Below are positions 1 through 6,127 of a stretch of 6,127 nt of DNA, one piece after another. The translations under genes and the position numbers were made by a program. The stretch is from positions 1 to 6,127 of the IMG/VR virus record IMGVR_UViG_2690316099_000002. One strand, 5' to 3'. The stretch comes from a virus (taxonomy: Duplodnaviria > Heunggongvirae > Uroviricota > Caudoviricetes). Position 1 is the first letter of the stretch, and each line of letters starts with the position of its first letter. The notes beneath the pieces were generated by a model. That model saw nothing but the letters and a program-made list of their open reading frames with translations. It searched no databases and had not been told where the DNA came from.

Positions 1-69
1 GTGCAGAAATCCCTCCGGTTAAGGATTAAATTTTATTTACAGTGCTGGATTTAATTATTCAGATTTGGA

Positions 70-345
70 TTATGCTTTCTCTTCACTCCGGTATACAAGA
101 ATTACAACGTCACCTCTGCTAATCACGCGAGCTGGCTCTCCTGGTTCTATACTGTCAATATCGAAGGTCTCAAAAAACGCATTCATTGCCTTCTGCCGCT
201 GCGTCTGTTTACAGCGTTTATTCCATTCTTTCAGTAACATCAGTGACAGCCACCGCCATGAGCAGAACATGATGTAGCACCAACCAAGAAGCGCCAGCCC
301 CGTATTGAGGGCCGTACCAATCGTCATTGTTGCGTCGATATTCAC
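70..345 (-). CDS. Small hypothetical membrane protein (91 aa from GTG at 345; alternative ATG start at 327)
   Basis: ORF with a hydrophobic stretch (TIGTALNTGLALLGWCYIMFCSWRWLSLMLL), consistent with one or two transmembrane helices. GTG at 343-345 overlaps the upstream stop (GTGA) and is preceded by AGGAGGAGG with a short spacer. No family recognised. Confidence 0.55.
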   Translation of the reverse strand: MNIDATMTIGTALNTGLALLGWCYIMFCSWRWLSLMLLKEWNKRCKQTQRQKAMNAFFETFDIDSIEPGEPARVISRGDVVILVYRSEEKA

Positions 346-638
346 TGTACCTCCTCCTGGAAAATAACTGCATGCCCCAGTTTCTCCGCCAGCGCCAGTT
401 CTGCCTTAGCGCCTGCTGACCGCTGCCAGCCTTTCAGCATGTAAATCGCATCCACACAACGAATCATTGCCATGCAAATATCCATGTAGTGCGGCTGTGT
501 CAGCCCGTCCGGAAGTACTGCCGGGTTTAAGACGGTATGCCCTTCCCGTTTCAGTTCCTCTTCTGCCTTGTGAAACGCCTCACGGTTGAAATTTTCATAC
601 CCCGTCATTGGACCGGCGATATAAACCCTCACCCTCAC
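342..638 (-). CDS. DUF4406-like prophage protein (nucleoside 2-deoxyribosyltransferase-like fold), 98 aa
   Basis: The N-terminus MRVRVYIAGPMTGYENFNREAF...GHTVLNP matches the conserved YIAGPMTG...N...F...G..V.NP signature I recall for DUF4406. GTG start at 636-638 overlaps the upstream stop (GTGA); AGGAGG lies about 7 nt upstream. Confidence 0.7.
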   Translation of the reverse strand: MRVRVYIAGPMTGYENFNREAFHKAEEELKREGHTVLNPAVLPDGLTQPHYMDICMAMIRCVDAIYMLKGWQRSAGAKAELALAEKLGHAVIFQEEVQ

Positions 639-1051
639 GCCATCACCTCCTGAAAATTACCCTGATAAAACGCCAGCACACGCTGCATAACCTTGCTTTT
701 CCGGCACTCGAGACAGATTATGTTCTGACGCCTGTCGTAGTGGCGTATCTCTCCATCTGGTAATGAATAAATCAGGCCAGGGTCGCTCTTCTTTTTCGCT
801 GCACCTTTAGACATCTCTTTATGGGCTTTTATCCAGTCTTTACGTGCCTGCTCAGAAGGGAATATTCCATGCCCTGAACCATATACAACACCACTGTCTA
901 CCAGTTCTTTCGCCAGAACTTCAATCAGATGTCTCGTCGCCCCTGTTTCATTTTCCAGTTGTTTACGCGTTTTCCTACCATCTCTGCGTACCAGTTCCAC
1001 AATACGCGCCTTTACTTCTTCCCGTTGTTCGGGAGTAAAAACTTTTACCAT
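635..1051 (-). CDS. Hypothetical phage protein, 138 aa, possibly DNA-binding
   Basis: ATG at 1049-1051 preceded by AGGAGGA at good spacing, 14 bp downstream of the preceding gene's stop. Basic, charged N-terminal region; no confident family match from sequence alone. Confidence 0.7.
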   Translation of the reverse strand: MVKVFTPEQREEVKARIVELVRRDGRKTRKQLENETGATRHLIEVLAKELVDSGVVYGSGHGIFPSEQARKDWIKAHKEMSKGAAKKKSDPGLIYSLPDGEIRHYDRRQNIICLECRKSKVMQRVLAFYQGNFQEVMA

Positions 1052-1065
1052 AAGTCCTCCTGAAA

Positions 1066-1569
1066 TTACTTCACAACCCTCAGGTGTCTGACATTCGAAC
1101 GCCAGCTCTCCCAGTTAAAATTCACCCAGCGACCACCGTTCATGACCATGCGGTCCATCACACGCTCGCCAAGAAGCGTACTCATCGCTACGTGGTTCAG
1201 GTTCGTCAGCATTCCGACACTACGCATCGAAGCAGTTCTGCGGTCGACTATCTGGTTCAGTGTGACCTGCTCGTTGCGCGTATCCCGCTGCATTCCGATT
1301 TCATCCAGGACAAGCAGGTCAACATCACACAACCCCTGTAAAAATTTTTCGCCTGAGTTTTTGTTGTCGTAGCTGTTGTGTAACGCCAGCATCACATCAG
1401 CCACCGTTATCACAATCACGCTGCGACCTTTCGCCAGAAGATGATTGCCAATGGCGGCTGCAAGGTGGTTCTTTCCGGTACCCGGCTTACCGCTGAACAC
1501 AAAATTCGTGCACCCTGTCATCAGTTCGTCAGCGATGGATTTTGCCTGGACGTCAAATACAGTTTCCAT
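1066..1569 (-). CDS. N-terminally truncated DnaC-like AAA+ ATPase (about 167 aa from ATG at 1569; the ORF track extends to a TTG at 1587)
   Basis: Roughly 80% identical to residues ~89-248 of the upstream 248-aa DnaC-like protein. Walker A (GKPGTGKNHLAAA) and Walker B (DLLVLDEIG) are intact. Own ATG preceded by GGAGGA; the DnaB-binding N-terminal region is absent. Confidence 0.75.
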   Translation of the reverse strand: METVFDVQAKSIADELMTGCTNFVFSGKPGTGKNHLAAAIGNHLLAKGRSVIVITVADVMLALHNSYDNKNSGEKFLQGLCDVDLLVLDEIGMQRDTRNEQVTLNQIVDRRTASMRSVGMLTNLNHVAMSTLLGERVMDRMVMNGGRWVNFNWESWRSNVRHLRVVK

Positions 1570-2073
1570 TAAAACATCCTCCAACAAAAATTACTTCACA
1601 ACTCCCGGAAAGCTGACATTTGAACGCCAGCTATCCCAGTTAAACGTCACCCACCGACAACCGTTCATGGTCATGCGGTCCATAATCCTCTCACCAAGAA
1701 GCGTGCTCATTGCGGCATGATTCAGGTTTGTTAACATCCCGACACTGCACAGTGATGCTGTCCGGCGATCAATTATCTGGTGCAATACCACCTGCTCGTT
1801 TTTCGTCTCCCGCTGAATGCCTATTTCATCCAGGACCAGCAAATCAACCCCGCAAAGCTCCTGTAAAAATTTTTCACCGGATTTGCCGTTGTCGTAGCTG
1901 TCATGCAACACGCTCATGACATCAGACTCGGTGACGATAATCACGCTGCGCCCCTTCGCCATCAGCCGGTTACCCATCGCCGCTGCAAGGTGATTTTTCC
2001 CGGTGCCGGTTTTACCGCTGAACACAAAATTCGTGCACCCTGTCATCAGTTCGTCAGCGATGGATTTTGCCTG
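1066..2073. repeat. Tandem direct duplication (period about 525 bp, roughly 80% identity) spanning the AAA+ portions of the two DnaC-like genes
   Basis: 1066..1548 aligns with 1591..2073 at the protein level and, by eye, at the nucleotide level. Both copies end ...AATTACTTCACAAC. Identity is estimated from the translations, not computed. Confidence 0.7.
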
Positions 2074-2337
2074 GTTCAGCGCATGTTTTTGCCCGTCGTT
2101 CTGCACCTGATAATTCGCAAACGAGCATTTGCTGTGCAGAGGCTGGATGCCCGAACGATTCAGGATTTTTTCCACCCGCAACTGGCGATTCTGGCGGTTG
2201 ATCTCCTCGCTACGTTTTCGCCCTTCTGCCAGTTGCCACTCGCGCCACTCATCCACTGTCCGGTACGGCGCGATTACATGCTGCGGGGTCAGCTTACGGA
2301 TACGCTCAAGAACACCACCTGCCGCGATATTTTTCAT
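1591..2337 (-). CDS. DnaC-like replicative helicase loader (prophage YdaV-type), 248 aa
   Basis: Full-length similarity to DnaC as I recall it: N-terminal region with NRSGIQPLH...CSFANYQV, Walker A GKTGTGKNHLAAA, Walker B DLLVLDEIG, C-terminal LGERIMDRM. ATG at 2335-2337, 6 nt downstream of the preceding stop. Confidence 0.85.
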   Translation of the reverse strand: MKNIAAGGVLERIRKLTPQHVIAPYRTVDEWREWQLAEGRKRSEEINRQNRQLRVEKILNRSGIQPLHSKCSFANYQVQNDGQKHALNQAKSIADELMTGCTNFVFSGKTGTGKNHLAAAMGNRLMAKGRSVIIVTESDVMSVLHDSYDNGKSGEKFLQELCGVDLLVLDEIGIQRETKNEQVVLHQIIDRRTASLCSVGMLTNLNHAAMSTLLGERIMDRMTMNGCRWVTFNWDSWRSNVSFPGVVK

Positions 2338-2343
2338 GGCCCG

Positions 2344-3309
2344 TTACCCCCTGAACCCCGGCGGAATTTCGGTATCCGGCTCAGAAATATGATTCACACA
2401 ACGCTGTACAGACGAACGCCCCAGGCGGATAACCAGTTCATCCCATTTTCCGCGAAGCTTTGACGGACTCATGATATTTTTTACCCAGAATGGATCCCGC
2501 TGCGCCCGACCAAACATTTCACAAATTTGTCTGTGAGTTCTGCCATCCAGCATCCGCATTGTGCGCACGTCGTTGGCCCATGCGGTCCAGTTGGGTTCTT
2601 TCGGTCGCGAAATCTCGCCATCATCGCTGGCGGCCTGCTCGTAAAGACTCACGATTCGCCCCCAGATCCACTGCGCACACGCCAAATCTTCCTGGTTGCC
2701 CCACTGGCGTTTTTTTGCACTGAACACAACCGCGTCAGGGTGTCGGGTTAAAAAATCCTGTTCAACCGTCTGCGGGTCCGGTTGCGAAGCTTCCGGACGA
2801 GAAGTGTTTTTATTCTCTGTAGTAATCTCTGTTGTATTCTCTGTAAGATCATCAGGCCATTTTGACCCGATGACATTGAGTCGTTTTGAACCAATGGAAC
2901 GTGCCATTTTGGCCTCTTCCATCGTGTCATTCTGACCTGATGGAGCAGCGCATTTTGACCTGATGGATTCGCTCACTTTGCCACCATCTAAAAGCTCGCT
3001 CTCGTAATTAATCGTGTAAAAATTAGTCATATCACGCTTTGATTTATTGAGCTTTTCGCAACGCAAAAGCCCCAGCGTTTTCAGACTGGCAAATGCGCGT
3101 TTTAACGTTGACTCTGACCAGAACGGGAACTGCTCCAGCCATTGTTCTGTTGTGTTATAAATCCAGCGAACACCATCACATTCCATGCCGGAACCGGTAT
3201 CTCTCAACCAGTAGTGCAGTTGTTGCAAAACAATGGCTTCGTTTAAGCCAATTTTCATTGCCAGCTGCGTGTTTATAACCAGTGGGCGTTCAGCAAAAAG
3301 AAGGCTCAT
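2344..3309 (-). CDS. Phage replication initiation protein (replisome-organiser / O-like, N-terminal HTH), about 321 aa
   Basis: Long ORF immediately upstream of the DnaC-like gene, the usual position of the initiator. N-terminal HTH-like segment (LAMKIGLNEAIVLQQLHYWL). The track's start at 3363 is a TTG; the first ATG is at 3307-3309 (used here), overlapping the upstream gene by 20 bp. Start is uncertain; another ATG lies at 3256-3258. Confidence 0.7.
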   Translation of the reverse strand: MSLLFAERPLVINTQLAMKIGLNEAIVLQQLHYWLRDTGSGMECDGVRWIYNTTEQWLEQFPFWSESTLKRAFASLKTLGLLRCEKLNKSKRDMTNFYTINYESELLDGGKVSESIRSKCAAPSGQNDTMEEAKMARSIGSKRLNVIGSKWPDDLTENTTEITTENKNTSRPEASQPDPQTVEQDFLTRHPDAVVFSAKKRQWGNQEDLACAQWIWGRIVSLYEQAASDDGEISRPKEPNWTAWANDVRTMRMLDGRTHRQICEMFGRAQRDPFWVKNIMSPSKLRGKWDELVIRLGRSSVQRCVNHISEPDTEIPPGFRG

Positions 3310-3811
3310 AATTCCATCCAGCTTTTTGTTGGTATTGCTGTCGATACGCAAGTTTGAAAGCAATGGCTTTTTCTATAAGTTCGTCAGTTTCACGATCCAC
3401 TACAGCTGGATCTGCAAAAAGCAGCCCGGACTCCACCACATCGCCATATTCTTTGTTTAACCCGGCGATCATGTACGTGATGCTTTTTCCGTCACTAATT
3501 TCACGATACAACCTGAAATCATTAATCCGGATAGCCTCCATAATTGCCGGAATCAGCGCCGTGAATTTTTTCCGCTTATCCCTGGTGTCGATAGCTTTCC
3601 AGCGTTCGAATATCTTCACCCGGTTAACGCCCAGCGCCCGTTGATCAACCTCGCCATCATTAAACGTGACGCGTTGAACATCGATGTTCGGGCGTTCTTT
3701 CAGAGCCCAGAATGCTTCCGTGATTAATATCGTCGCCTGCTCCTGTGTCATTCCTGGTCGGCACACCCAGGCATCCAGAGCCTCACAAACCTGTTCAGGG
3801 GTGATTTTCAT
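3290..3811 (-). CDS. YdaT-like protein (putative toxin YdaT family), 173 aa
   Basis: Sits directly downstream of the Cro-like gene, as ydaT follows ydaS in Rac-type prophages. ATG at 3809-3811 overlaps the DicC-like 3' end by 17 bp. Family assignment is from position and general sequence character, not a verified alignment. Confidence 0.65.
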   Translation of the reverse strand: MKITPEQVCEALDAWVCRPGMTQEQATILITEAFWALKERPNIDVQRVTFNDGEVDQRALGVNRVKIFERWKAIDTRDKRKKFTALIPAIMEAIRINDFRLYREISDGKSITYMIAGLNKEYGDVVESGLLFADPAVVDRETDELIEKAIAFKLAYRQQYQQKAGWNYEPSFC

Positions 3812-4022
3812 TGTTCAACCGCCCCGCCCGCTTCGTCTTACGATATTCGTCATAAACTTTGGGATCATACTGAAGCTCCCCGCCAGATGCCTCTTGCAGG
3901 CGCATCGCGCGACCTTCAGGAACCAGTTCCCCCCATTGAGAAACAGCAGATGGATCAACACCAGCAGCTTTCGCTACTTTGGCTTTCGTCCCATAAAAAT
4001 TAATTACGTCTGATTTAAACAT
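3795..4022 (-). CDS. dicC: DicC-like Cro-type regulator, about 75 aa
   Basis: The C-terminal two-thirds (GELVPEGRAMRLQEASGGELQYDPKVYDEYRKTKRAGRLNNENH) closely match my recollection of E. coli DicC. ATG at 4020-4022 preceded by GGAGGGG. The track's longer start at 4049 is a TTG lying inside the operator-like palindrome. Confidence 0.8.
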   Translation of the reverse strand: MFKSDVINFYGTKAKVAKAAGVDPSAVSQWGELVPEGRAMRLQEASGGELQYDPKVYDEYRKTKRAGRLNNENHP

Positions 4023-4034
4023 CACCCCTCCAAA

Positions 4035-4050
4035 ATTGAGTTTTCTCAAT
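4035..4050. promoter_or_regulatory. Operator-like inverted repeat ATTGAG-N4-CTCAAT in the dicC/dicA divergent promoter region
   Basis: Perfect 6-bp inverted half-sites with a TTTT spacer. A near-identical copy lies at 4568..4583. CTCAAG/TCAAGG half-site-like direct repeats follow at 4058..4080. Confidence 0.55.
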
Positions 4051-4099
4051 AGTAATCACTCAAGGAATCTCAAGTCAAGGGTTATTAAGATATCTAAAT

Positions 4100-4507
4100 A
4101 TGAACGAGAAAACTTTAGGTCAACGAATTAGAGAAAGACGCAAACAGGTTGGTTTAAGTCAAAACGATTTAAGCAAAGCCGCTGGCGTATCTGGCTCATC
4201 AATTTCACTATGGGAAAGCGACCATACAGCCCCGCGTGGGCAAAATTTGCATCGCCTGGCTGAGGTATTGCAATGTTCACCAACTTGGATACTGTTTGGT
4301 GACGAGGATAAAACACCAGATCCACCAGTTGCACTCAACAGCGCCTTAGACTTATCGGAAGATGAGTTGGAGATGTTGCGATTGTATCGCGCACTTCCAA
4401 AATCAGAGCAGCAAGCACAAATCAGCGAACTCCGTGCCCGCGTTGAGAATTTTAATCGCCTATTCACCGAGCTACTAGAAGCTCGCAAACGTAACAAACA
4501 TCAGTAA
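4100..4507 (+). CDS. dicA: DicA-like XRE-family HTH repressor (CI-type), 135 aa
   Basis: N-terminal HTH (GQRIRERRKQVGLSQNDLSKAAGVSGSSISLWE) and the motif LQCSPTWILFGDEDK, plus a C-terminal segment SEQ...RARVENFNRLF.ELL.A, all close to my recollection of Qin DicA, which has the same length. No clear Shine-Dalgarno upstream of the ATG. Confidence 0.9.
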   Translation: MNEKTLGQRIRERRKQVGLSQNDLSKAAGVSGSSISLWESDHTAPRGQNLHRLAEVLQCSPTWILFGDEDKTPDPPVALNSALDLSEDELEMLRLYRALPKSEQQAQISELRARVENFNRLFTELLEARKRNKHQ

Positions 4508-4524
4508 TCCCCTTCACAAATTTT

Positions 4525-4558
4525 AAAGCCTTACATTTCAATGTATTGGCTTTATTTT
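4525..4558 (+). terminator. Putative intrinsic terminator downstream of dicA
   Basis: AAAGCC (4525-4530) pairs with GGCTTT (4548-4553), with additional inner pairing ACAT/ATGT, followed by ATTTTG. The stem is AT-rich, so it is probably a weak terminator. Confidence 0.4.
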
Positions 4559-4567
4559 GCATTAAAT

Positions 4568-4620
4568 ATTGAGTTTTCTCATTAAAAGCACTTGACCAAC
4601 AGTCATGAGAAAACTAAATT
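4568..4620 (+). promoter_or_regulatory. Second operator-like repeat (ATTGAGttttCTCATT, 4568..4583) with a candidate sigma70 promoter for the leftward operon
   Basis: The repeat matches the 4035..4050 site at 15 of 16 positions. It is followed by a -35-like TTGACC (4592-4597), a 17-bp spacer and a -10-like TAAATT (4615-4620). Confidence 0.45.
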
Positions 4621-4696
4621 ACCACCCATCAAGACACCGCACGGTGTTCTCAGCAAACAGTTCCGCTACCCGGCGTTAAGGGGAAATGAGGTCAAC

Positions 4697-4849
4697 ATGG
4701 ATACTATCGATCTTGGTAACAACGAATCTCTGGTGTACGGCGTGTTTCCCAACCAGGACGGCACATTCACCGCGATGACGTATACCAAAAGCAAAACGTT
4801 TAAAACCGAAGCTGGCGCGCATCGCTGGTTAGCAAGAAACTCTGACTGA
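4697..4849 (+). CDS. ydfA: YdfA-like small protein (DUF1391), 50 aa
   Basis: ATG at 4697 preceded by GAGG. Size and position (first gene after dicA, same strand) match ydfA of Qin. The longer track ORF from 4592 has no RBS and includes the promoter region. Confidence 0.65.
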   Translation: MDTIDLGNNESLVYGVFPNQDGTFTAMTYTKSKTFKTEAGAHRWLARNSD

Positions 4850-4860
4850 TGAGGTTGACG

Positions 4861-5499
4861 ATGGAATTTAAAGATTTACCTACTTCAATCCAGGAGATTG
4901 CAGCACACACACTTCGTCATCGTCTGAACGAACTTGCATTGGAATCGGTAACGAAAAAAGACACTGATAATATGGCTCGTAATGTGCGCGATGCGTTTAC
5001 CGGATTGTATTTCTGTGCGTCTGTAAATAAACACGACTCAGATAGTGTGGCAAATAAAATTGCAGAAACGACAGCGCAAAACATCAATACGAAACCAACG
5101 GAAGAAGAAATTGATCAGTTTGCTCATGATGCTGGTTTAAAAAACAAGAAAGAAAAATCGCCATATGCGGGGAACATGTTTGTTTATGACAATCTCATCA
5201 GAATTCGTGGCGAAATTCCGGCGGAATACCTGGCAAGAGTCCATCAGGCATTGCTTAAAAATCTGGAAACAGAATTATTTGATGGCAACACTAACGGTTT
5301 CTTCATGGTATCAGGCCTTGAGAAAGACTGGGATGCAGAAAAACGCTGGAATGTTGCCACATGGTTATTCAGTAACAGAGCCGCTGCCCTGGAAGCTTCG
5401 GCATGTATTTGCGGCCTGTTCTTAACAGACCACAAATATAATCTGGATGTGTACAGTTATATTTACGCTGAACACGGTCCGCTCTGGATTGACTGGTAA
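4861..5499 (+). CDS. Hypothetical protein, 212 aa, in an AT-rich insert (candidate moron)
   Basis: ATG at 4861 preceded by GAGG with about 7 nt spacing. The track's start at 4849 overlaps the ydfA stop (ATGA) and is an alternative. Visibly lower GC than the replication module. No recognisable family. Confidence 0.7.
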   Translation: MEFKDLPTSIQEIAAHTLRHRLNELALESVTKKDTDNMARNVRDAFTGLYFCASVNKHDSDSVANKIAETTAQNINTKPTEEEIDQFAHDAGLKNKKEKSPYAGNMFVYDNLIRIRGEIPAEYLARVHQALLKNLETELFDGNTNGFFMVSGLEKDWDAEKRWNVATWLFSNRAAALEASACICGLFLTDHKYNLDVYSYIYAEHGPLWIDW

Positions 5500-5709
5500 T
5501 TATAAGGAAACACCAGCAGGGCCGAGGCGACCAACTGAACGATTAAAATCAATAATGCCATTATAAAGGACATTATTTAATTTATCGTCGAATGCTGATT
5601 CTGTGAGCCTCAACTCTGAATGAGTTTTTAATAACCCTGATTGCCTGAGTTGATTTACCAGGCATTCAATCTGTTTTTCAATAAGCGGATTTCTTTTTTT
5701 GTTTGGCAT
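5500..5709 (-). CDS. Hypothetical small basic protein, 69 aa, convergent with the 212-aa ORF
   Basis: ATG at 5707-5709 preceded by GGAGGA at 4-5 nt. Very AT-rich. Its stop is immediately adjacent to the stop of the plus-strand 212-aa ORF (5497-5499 / 5500-5502). Basic N-terminus (MPNKKRNPLIEKQ) suggests possible nucleic-acid binding. Confidence 0.55.
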   Translation of the reverse strand: MPNKKRNPLIEKQIECLVNQLRQSGLLKTHSELRLTESAFDDKLNNVLYNGIIDFNRSVGRLGPAGVSL

Positions 5710-6044
5710 TTTATCCTCCATTGAGGTTCTGGGTTAAAAATGGAGACCAACACGCTGCCACGTGTGGTCGTGCGCCGGACACGGATAAGAATCCGGTACT
5801 GACAGTTTACTGAAAGGATATATCCCTGAAAAGCCAGGGCATAACGCGAAAGCGCACGGCGAAGTTCGTCTCACTGTACGGTGTCGTTAAATTTAATTCG
5901 ACCGTGCGCTTCCGGTTGTGGCACTCCGCGAAATGGCGCGGCGGTAAGTATGGCGGGGTTATTCCTCCCCCATTGAGACACCGGGTTGCCAGGTTGACCA
6001 TACGCTTAAGTGACAACCCCGCTGCAACGCCCTCTGTTATCAAT

Positions 6045-6097
6045 TTTCTGGTGACGTTTGGTGGTATCAGTTTTACTCCGTGACTGCTCTGCTGCCC
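6045..6097 (+). ncRNA. dicF: DicF-like antisense sRNA (ftsZ-targeting cell-division inhibitor RNA)
   Basis: TTTCTGGTGACGTTTGGTGGTATCAGTTTTACTCCGTGACTGCTCTGCTGCCC matches the roughly 53-nt E. coli DicF sequence as I recall it, apart from two C-to-T changes in the terminal stem. It is followed by TTTTT. Confidence 0.7.
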
Positions 6098-6102
6098 TTT
6101 TT
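6058..6102 (+). terminator. Intrinsic terminator forming the DicF 3' end
   Basis: GGTGGTA (6060-6066) can pair with TGCTGCC (6090-6096) using G-U wobbles, with inner CAG/CTG pairing, followed by a T5 run at 6098-6102. Confidence 0.55.
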
Positions 6103-6127
6103 AAAGTGAATTTTGTGATGCGGTGAA

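Follow-up and report, generated by a model that had tools for sequence, protein, structure and literature searches.

A convergent gene pair as one allele of a polymorphic slot between ydfA and dicF in a Qin-like Escherichia coli prophage

We analysed a 6,127-nucleotide (nt) stretch of Caudoviricetes DNA (IMG/VR record IMGVR_UViG_2690316099_000002, positions 1 to 6,127; hereafter the window), which is the immunity and early region of an Escherichia coli lambdoid prophage of the DicA/DicC (Qin-like) type. Between ydfA and the gene for the small RNA (sRNA) DicF lie two open reading frames (ORFs), ORF212 on the plus strand and ORF69 on the minus strand, which an earlier note on this DNA had singled out as a two-gene insert. 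Both are real genes under purifying selection. Together they represent allele T1 of a polymorphic slot, in which a variable middle lies between two conserved ends. The architecture of this slot and a partnership between the two proteins are both likely. What would such a partnership be for? Tentatively, and with somewhat less than even confidence, we propose that ORF212 and ORF69 are cognate partners in an accessory module of two proteins, carried by temperate prophages of enterobacteria in their early-left (dicBF-type) operon. This module would pair a small effector or regulator of the lysogen with an early-lytic neutraliser.

The ORF list, our reading of the sequence and the RefSeq coding sequences (CDSs) agree with the earlier note on the positions and strands of both ORFs (Table 1) and on their good ribosome-binding sites, GAGG 6 nt 5' of ATG 4861 for ORF212 and GGAGG 5 nt 5' of ATG 5709 for ORF69. 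The two stop codons are directly adjacent (TAA at 5497-5499 on the plus strand, TAA at 5502-5500 on the minus strand), and a promoter and terminator scan of the window found no convincing terminator between the two genes. With 3' ends that abut here and overlap in related loci, the two transcripts must overlap. Neither protein is hydrophobic; ORF212 is acidic (isoelectric point (pI) 5.3) and ORF69, as the earlier note had it, is basic (pI 9.4) and antisense to the dicBF operon. As is usual for prophage cassettes, the base composition deviates from that of the surroundings, at 40.6% GC (ORF212 41.9%, ORF69 36.7%) against 48.4% in ydfA, 45.8% in dicA, 52.7% in the downstream leader region (5710-6045) and 47.5% in the window. 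GC content is therefore lower than in the neighbours, as first described, but by 5-12 points, which is not a dramatic gap.

Table 1. Positions of the features discussed, in window coordinates
Feature	Position	Strand	Basis and remarks
dicA-like helix-turn-helix (HTH) repressor	4100-4507		RefSeq annotation of matching chromosome
Putative dicB-operon promoter, upstream of ydfA	4592..4620	+	Promoter scan, TTGACC-17-TAAATT
ydfA (DUF1391), conserved left flank of slot	4697..4849	+	Pfam PF07151, 3.5e-29
ORF212	4861-5499	+	ATG 4861, 212 aa; open frame 4849..5499 = 216 aa; RefSeq WP_000394554.1
ORF212 N-domain, residues 1-60 (MEFKDLP...NVRDAFTGLY)	4861..5040	+	Predicted helical hairpin
ORF212 linker, residues 61-97	5041..5151	+	Low-complexity, acidic; dN/dS 0.7-0.9 (relaxed); AF2 pLDDT ~57-65
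ORF212 C-domain, residues 98-212	5152..5499	+	Travels with ORF69; small alpha/beta domain
ORF69	5500-5709	-	ATG 5709, 69 aa; open frame 5500..5721 = 73 aa; RefSeq WP_001133036.1
ORF69 5' leader (platform)	5710..5797	-	Hairpin 1 5796-5775, hairpin 2 5769-5745, Shine-Dalgarno (SD) GGAGG 5719-5715
Putative sigma-70 promoter of ORF69	5804..5832	-	TTTTCA-17-TAAACT, ends 7 nt before hairpin 1; read from sequence
Pre-dicF leader of dicBF transcript, conserved right flank of slot	5768..6045	+	Near-identical to K-12 Qin
DicF sRNA	6046-6097	+	Rfam RF00039, 66.9 bits, E 1.5e-13

ORF69 encodes a basic soluble protein with the conserved motifs SGLLK, F..KL and a C-terminal GRRGPAGVxL. Its homologues, 36 proteins from Escherichia, including E. 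albertii, and Salmonella, keep all 69 codons without insertions or deletions. The ratio of nonsynonymous to synonymous substitution rates (dN/dS), estimated by the Nei-Gojobori method from copies with dS 0.38-0.64, is 0.15-0.25; the most distant copy, for which dS is saturated, retains 51% of the residues. Across the region ORF69 is the only stop-free frame of six, the other five carrying 3-8 stops. GRRGPAGVxL is kept with different codons in the Salmonella locus L006, so selection acts on the ORF69 protein. Over its full length (1-69/69) the protein matches the profile of phrog_4274 (E 9.1e-51), a family annotated as 'unknown function', and no DNA-binding motif was detected in it by Pfam or PDB sequence-profile searches. 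A frameshifted ORF69 (MPNKKEIRLLKNRLNAW) is present among the T1 copies.

ORF212 likewise matches a PHROG of 'unknown function' from end to end (phrog_2151, E 4.8e-145 over 1-212/212), and its parts have had separate histories. PHROGs 1363, 9419, 6937 and 33007 match only its first residues, from 1-51 to 1-75, and a profile search of 1.84 billion representatives returned 53 matches, 43 of them to the N-terminal region only and seven to the C-terminal region only; the 43 either carry different C-termini or end after the N-terminal region. The N-domain, which exists in at least two strongly diverged alleles and is common to the sense genes of several cassette types, has a dN/dS of ~0.3, while the C-domain is at 0.17-0.20. 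In the same gene pair dS is 1.4 in the N-domain and 0.5 in the C-domain, which makes the gene a recombinational mosaic. Prediction by AlphaFold2 (AF2) places helices at residues 8-24 and 32-55 of the N-domain, with a predicted local distance difference test (pLDDT) score of ~65-70. The full-length model was poor (pLDDT 60), and the C-domain was re-modelled alone from 20 sequences including a distant subfamily (pLDDT 74.8, predicted template modelling score (pTM) 0.70), which gave a beta-beta-alpha-beta-beta-alpha sandwich with a poorly modelled tail. The structure prediction and Foldseek search proposed earlier thus ended without a significant fold match, none reaching E <= 0.001 for the C-domain in PDB or BFVD. 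The ACT, ArgR C-terminal and DCoH-type alpha/beta sandwiches align with the modelled C-domain over only 60-67 residues at ~10% identity, a likeness of predicted fold class and not a family assignment, and comparison with ACT and ArgR_C identified no ligand-binding motif.

The N-domain alone (~40% identity, residues 1-86) also heads a 147-aa protein in Escherichia phage ArgO145 (locus L012, 3501-3944) and in 73 other Shiga toxin (Stx)-type phage records. That gene lies downstream of recombination genes and is co-directional with all its neighbours; the N-domain thus also occurs outside a convergent slot. A repeat match of the N-domain to P0184, a protein of 5,212 aa, was judged spurious.

What takes the place of the pair in other prophages? 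The K-12 Qin record has the gene order dicA-ydfA-ydfB-ydfC-dicF-dicB given in the earlier note, and its alignment with the window runs through ydfA to ~4848 and resumes from ~5768 to the window end, with nothing in common across the interval. In K-12 Qin and phage Tritos the slot holds ydfB-ydfC and no antisense gene; other prophages (L007-L011) have other pairs or several modules in tandem, and in L008 ydfB and ydfC coexist with the T1 cassette. Together with at least 38 IMG/VR loci described below, these neighbourhoods establish the fixed position and variable content typical of a prophage accessory cassette, and they answer in the affirmative the earlier question whether the insert varies at a fixed site. 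The description as a two-gene insert holds insofar as variable content lies between conserved flanks; it is no simple insertion of independent genes but probably a cognate convergent pair in a two-ended slot. At the left end the sense gene starts with the common N-domain of ~55 aa, and at the right end the antisense gene starts from a common ~90-nt leader (two hairpins, GGAGG, ATG), the first codons of the small genes (MPNKP...) sometimes being the same as in ORF69. What varies between these ends is the C-terminal portion of the sense protein together with the bulk of the small protein. This conserved design explains the exchange of cargo between prophages.

IMG/VR was searched for the 15-nt string from SD to ATG, and only matches with the upstream element were kept; the counts are those of a sample. 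At least 38 loci carry the leader platform. Upstream of the small genes the leader is identical or near-identical for at least seven unrelated ORFs: the ORF69 family (S1, at least 13 loci), S3 (64 aa, MSEQELKLGACY..., at least 10), S2 (61-80 aa, zinc-ribbon-like, MPNKPCPACN..., at least six), S5 (94 aa, at least three), S4 (75 aa, at least two), S7 (about 100 aa, at least two) and S6 (a 63-aa zinc ribbon, at least one), with another, unclassified small protein in at least one locus. T1 is the commonest allele of the slot among the matches listed. Each small type faces a single sense C-terminal type (T1-T6) in every interpretable locus among these matches, S5 and S6 both facing near-identical sense ORFs of 48-52 aa (MNETELKHV...). 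Where both genes are intact, again among the matches listed, the 3' ends abut in T1 (0 nt) and overlap by 4 to 77 nt in the others. This does not apply to T2 loci whose sense gene carries a frameshift, its last ORF ending 37 nt short of the stop of the small gene, nor to loci in which either gene is truncated. The YmfI family (NCBIfam NF051477) includes S5 and S7, and S5 scores 21.2 bits against a Pfam GhoS cutoff of 21.

Two variants of the slot may be added. Many cassette copies are decayed, and in most E. coli loci of type T2 (T2 loci: L011, L022, L068, L079 and L087) a frameshift splits the sense gene into 129 + 50 aa. In Salmonella L003, L004 and L005 (~5227-6630 in L003) two cassette units stand in tandem with their own leader copies 689 nt apart, one before a 64-aa S3 protein and the other before the ORF69 homologue.

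The leader itself is a conserved element. Hairpin 1 (CCGGA-N12-TCCGG) has an invariant stem, and folding places both hairpins at the same positions in the window, L006, K-12, L062 and L007 (z -2.3 to -3.3); the sequence of hairpin 2 differs strongly between the window, L062, L006 and K-12 while its position is the same. A third helix sequesters the SD in L006, L033 and L062. In four upstream contexts a -10-like hexamer (TAAACT, TATAAC, GATAAT, TATAGG) ends 6-7 nt before hairpin 1, from which we infer that ORF69 transcription would start at the foot of this hairpin. K-12 Qin (L002, ~3560-3660) and Tritos (L137) keep the promoter-like site and both hairpins without an antisense ORF, so the element may have a further function, either as antisense RNA or as part of the sense dicBF transcript. 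In Qin and Tritos this could be an unannotated RNA antisense to ydfC or to the dicBF leader, or else a structure of the sense transcript, for instance a site of processing. The stretch before dicF that was noted earlier as ~320 bp of non-coding DNA measures 336 nt and is no anonymous spacer, being made up of the pre-dicF leader from ~5768 and the ORF69 5' leader at 5710-5797.

Three other readings of this region were rejected. A minus-strand promoter candidate at 5737..5708 has a -10 that overlaps the ORF69 start codon, and the U-run that would make hairpin 2 an attenuator is not conserved (L007). An integron-attC-like reading of the boundary hairpins was set aside because no dedicated recombinase lies nearby and the cassettes have their own promoter-like sites.

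Does the pair hold together outside this setting? In E. coli it is frequent: a 573-nt query comprising the C-domain and ORF69 matches 600 of 5,426 complete genomes, 594 of which cover at least 80% of the query, so that ~11% of the genomes, including O157:H7 and other Shiga toxin-producing E. coli (STEC), carry the exact pair. More telling are distant contexts. P0189, a Salmonella protein of 220 aa, has only the C-domain in common with ORF212 (33% identity), behind a different N-terminal domain; its gene comes first after cox in a prophage whose int-repressor-cox switch is P2-like, and the convergent gene opposite it encodes a 69-aa protein with 51% identity to ORF69. In P0176 (286 aa; L134-L136, 5001-5861) an XRE-type HTH precedes a C-domain-like region, and the gene is faced, with an 11-nt overlap, by one for a homologous 64-aa protein (...AEQLILSGLLK...RGTPAGVRL). 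This arrangement hints that the C-domain may serve for partner binding or sensing, as a module that can be joined to proteins that bind DNA. Finally, in Salmonella L003-L005 the N-domain and linker are deleted and the C-domain-only ORF still stands stop-to-stop with the ORF69 homologue. That gene order and orientation are kept at ~30% and 40-50% identity in two distant Salmonella-type contexts argues for cognate partners, and persistence in three different phage backgrounds is our main argument that the C-domain and ORF69 work together. The C-domain ORF of L003 carries no gene call in that assembly.

How might the partners work? As read from the gene arrangement, ORF69 would be made from its own promoter in the lysogen, when the DicA-repressed sense operon is silent, and ORF212 would be made only upon derepression of that operon, by induction or infection. 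The ORF212 C-domain would then bind and neutralise ORF69. With no terminator between the genes, sense transcription is proposed to collide with, and be antisense to, that of ORF69, and strong sense transcription would thus suppress the ORF69 gene by collision or antisense pairing. The purpose would most likely be phage conflict, ORF69 acting as a lysogen-expressed exclusion, defence or regulatory factor and ORF212 as early-lytic self-immunity. In the mirror image ORF212 would be an early host-takeover factor, with ORF69 a lock against its leaky expression or against the factor of a superinfecting relative. A superinfection-exclusion, defence or anti-defence role was suggested in the earlier note from gene context; our confidence in a specific defence role is lower than in the mechanism as a whole.

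Several observations weigh against this mechanism. The putative ORF69 promoter lies below the threshold of the consensus scan. T1 copies have decayed in L009, L056, L077 and L106 through an IS100 insertion, a frameshifted sense gene or a frameshifted ORF69, and the module is therefore dispensable to the host. Strict pairing within E. coli is equally predicted by linkage if recombination is confined to the conserved flanks, which leaves only the distant contexts to argue for function. Searches for family membership, moreover, gave no match for ORF212 or ORF69 in Pfam or NCBIfam, none among the PADLOC-DB v2 defence models at E<=1 and none to toxin or antitoxin families in Pfam, NCBIfam or PADLOC.

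Against PDB, sequence profiles of both proteins returned only noise at E>1, so that with Pfam, NCBIfam and PADLOC empty and both PHROGs of unknown function the earlier impression that neither protein belongs to a characterised family stands. The sibling cassette proteins gave nothing meaningful against PADLOC. Profile scans with ORF69 and the C-domain found no confirmed relative in one-genome-per-species contigs, as fits a narrow, strain-variable distribution. Neither ORF69 nor the C-domain occurs in 50,697 GenBank phage records, where only the N-domain was found, at 40% identity in Stx phages; 53 of these records have a dicF-type module, and the absence is thus specific to the ORF212/ORF69 cassette. 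A literature search on both proteins, their slot, ydfABC, dicB hotspots and ymfI/ymfJ found no paper on these genes. A lead from Pas sRNAs proved irrelevant, as these lie in the late region.

A wider claim, which we regard as doubtful, is that the slot may be a previously undescribed polymorphic phage conflict locus, with a shared antisense platform that would present, in the lysogen, at least seven interchangeable small-protein families, each matched to a cognate C-terminal domain on an early-lytic sense protein with the common N-domain. Such a locus would combine defence with self-immunity, or would let related prophages tell self from non-self; ORF212/ORF69 would be the most abundant of its alleles, and ymfJ/ymfI of prophage e14 another.

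Of the alternatives to a cognate module, the one that survives best, though unlikely, is that ORF212 and ORF69 are independent moron-like genes in one recombination slot, paired by tight linkage between the conserved flanks. Variation in E. coli does break at the conserved N-domain and platform, adjoining or overlapping genes are hard to separate, and in the Stx phage locus L012 the N-domain has no convergent partner. Linkage between these flanks fits poorly with a pair that has persisted, at ~30% and 40-50% identity, in two further phage backgrounds whose N-terminal domains and flanks are different, and that outlives loss of the N-domain in Salmonella L003. The T4 pair and e14 ymfJ/ymfI are likewise kept, and such long synteny is rare in mosaic phage genomes without selection.

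Could one of the proteins be a toxin? A toxin-antitoxin (TA)-like addiction or abortive-infection module, in which the other protein would neutralise the toxic one, possibly aided by antisense RNA, strikes us as improbable. It would account for two small proteins, one acidic and one basic, for diverse cassettes with strict pairing, for 3' ends that abut or overlap as in antisense-controlled TA loci, and for the sibling S5, which reaches the Pfam threshold for GhoS, a type V antitoxin. The genes are, however, convergent and do not form the co-directional autoregulated operon of type II systems, and they have no recognisable toxin or antitoxin domain and no PADLOC match. ORF69, hydrophilic (grand average of hydropathy (gravy) -0.41) and free of any hydrophobic stretch, is unlike the small hydrophobic membrane toxins of type I. 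Furthermore, the lysogen should express only the antisense gene, which would leave a constitutive toxin unopposed.

A mainly regulatory role, which we consider quite improbable, would have ORF69 or its transcript control dicBF. Antisense transcription from the platform would then reduce read-through into dicF and dicB, both of them toxic, and ORF69 would be a small regulator or anti-regulator that binds nucleic acid and has the C-domain protein as its target. Interference of the ORF69 strand with read-through into dicF is architecturally plausible, given the missing terminator and the gene's own promoter-like site. The basic charge of ORF69 would suit such a role, as would the fusion of an XRE-type HTH to the C-domain in P0176, reminiscent of a repressor with a partner-binding domain, and the retention of promoter-like site and hairpins without an antisense ORF in K-12 Qin and Tritos; dicF and dicB are toxic and tightly repressed (PMC5069750). 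Against it, at least seven unrelated small proteins on the platform are under purifying selection, which means that the protein bodies matter and not the transcript alone, and ORF69 yielded no DNA-binding motif in the searches given above. That ORF69 is a chance minus-strand ORF, as a short frame of 36.7% GC antisense inside an operon might be, is effectively refuted by its 69 codons without indels at saturated dS, its low dN/dS, the stops in the other five frames, the strong SD, the GRRGPAG motif kept by different codons in L006, and the existence of a PHROG family and a RefSeq CDS.

Which known systems resemble the cognate module? One is ymfJ/ymfI in e14 of K-12, next to the repressor gene ymfK (cohE), with the same order of repressor, sense early gene and convergent antisense gene. 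In e14 (L133, 4498-5085) ymfJ (minus strand) and ymfI (plus strand) directly follow ymfK with 3' ends overlapping by 63 nt, and the YmfJ C-terminus (YHDTMVKALR...) matches that of the sibling T4 sense protein. ORF212 and ORF69 are nevertheless no sequence homologues of YmfJ and YmfI, since the YmfI_phage family matches S5 and S7 only and no segment is common with YmfJ; e14 also has another N-terminal module and another upstream leader than T1. Qin ydfB/ydfC occupy the same position, from ydfA to the pre-dicF leader, in the same DicA-repressed operon, but they have no sequence similarity to T1, both lie on the sense strand and no antisense ORF accompanies the retained leader hairpins.

Among systems of known function, BstA/aba is a prophage defence with cognate self-immunity, and lambda rexAB and sieB are lysogen-expressed exclusion genes near the immunity region. 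Like T1 these are accessory loci near the repressor whose content varies between related phages, and the likeness extends to a plausible lysogen-expressed component and a cognate component that acts when the prophage goes lytic. They differ in having no homology to T1, whose proteins are far smaller and in which the opposite strand would encode self-immunity as a protein domain. The P2/P4 hotspots, reportedly of antiviral systems (Rousset et al. 2022), resemble the slot in their fixed position between conserved phage genes and their interchangeable cargo; they carry recognisable multi-gene defence systems, whereas the slot carries convergent pairs of 60-210 aa without known domains and has its own expression leader. 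Compared with other prophage hotspots near immunity regions, which it resembles in behaviour, the slot stands apart by its tiny convergent pairs, shared expression leader and shared sense N-domain. Type II and type V TA systems such as GhoS/GhoT are also small, polymorphic, acidic/basic two-gene loci, and S5 weakly resembles GhoS, but T1 is convergent, matches no TA family and has a different expected expression logic. If the slot were a conflict locus, polymorphic toxin C-terminal (CT)/immunity cassettes would be analogous in layout, although the slot is convergent and intracellular.

Why does this matter? DicF and DicB are cell-division inhibitors, dicF and dicB affect virulence of enterohaemorrhagic E. 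coli (EHEC) and phage resistance, and the pair sits within the operon that makes them. If ORF212 and ORF69 were a cognate effector and neutraliser, the slot would offer new functions in phage exclusion or host takeover in a compact form that is easy to clone, would assign ymfI and ymfJ of the K-12 y-ome a role, and would reveal antisense control over dicF and dicB. If they were independent morons, the slot would be ordinary prophage mosaicism.

Two E. coli chromosomes are 99.9% identical to the window over 4000-6127, and in one of them the RefSeq order is Cro/CI-type regulator, HTH repressor, ydfA, WP_000394554.1, WP_001133036.1 and dicB. Upstream of ydfA, the CACTTGACC block of the dicB-operon promoter-like site is conserved with K-12 Qin in the pairwise alignment; this putative promoter would drive ydfA-ORF212-dicF-dicB and would be DicA-repressed in lysogens. 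The dicBF sense operon is under DicA repression in lysogens and toxic on induction (PMC5069750), and the 'long untranslated region containing dicF' of the same study corresponds to the pre-dicF leader. In O157 the non-conserved genes upstream of dicF appear as unlabelled boxes in a figure of Balasubramanian et al. (PMC5069750). Within the pre-dicF leader lies a long-range inverted repeat (window 5848-5915: GAAAGCGCACGG ... CCGTGCGCTTCC). K-12 has this repeat as well, and it can still be recognised in Salmonella L006 (~7028-7100); such a structure might serve in processing of the dicF precursor.

On the minus strand further to the left, a 173-aa ORF (1066-1587) duplicates, at 79% identity, the C-terminal two-thirds of the adjoining 248-aa protein (1591-2337), an ATP-binding (DnaC/IstB-like) replication protein that is single-copy in the closest genomes. 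The best eight matches among the 5,426 complete genomes of E. coli, each of >=99.7%, end at window ~1549; the duplication junction thus looks rare and may reflect either recombination or an error of assembly. A 'toxin YdaT family' gene (3290-3811, minus strand) follows the cro-like gene, as in the Rac ydaS/ydaT arrangement, and related prophages L010 and L011 have a RelB/RelE pair between the repressor and ydfA, so that the immunity region has several separate accessory slots.

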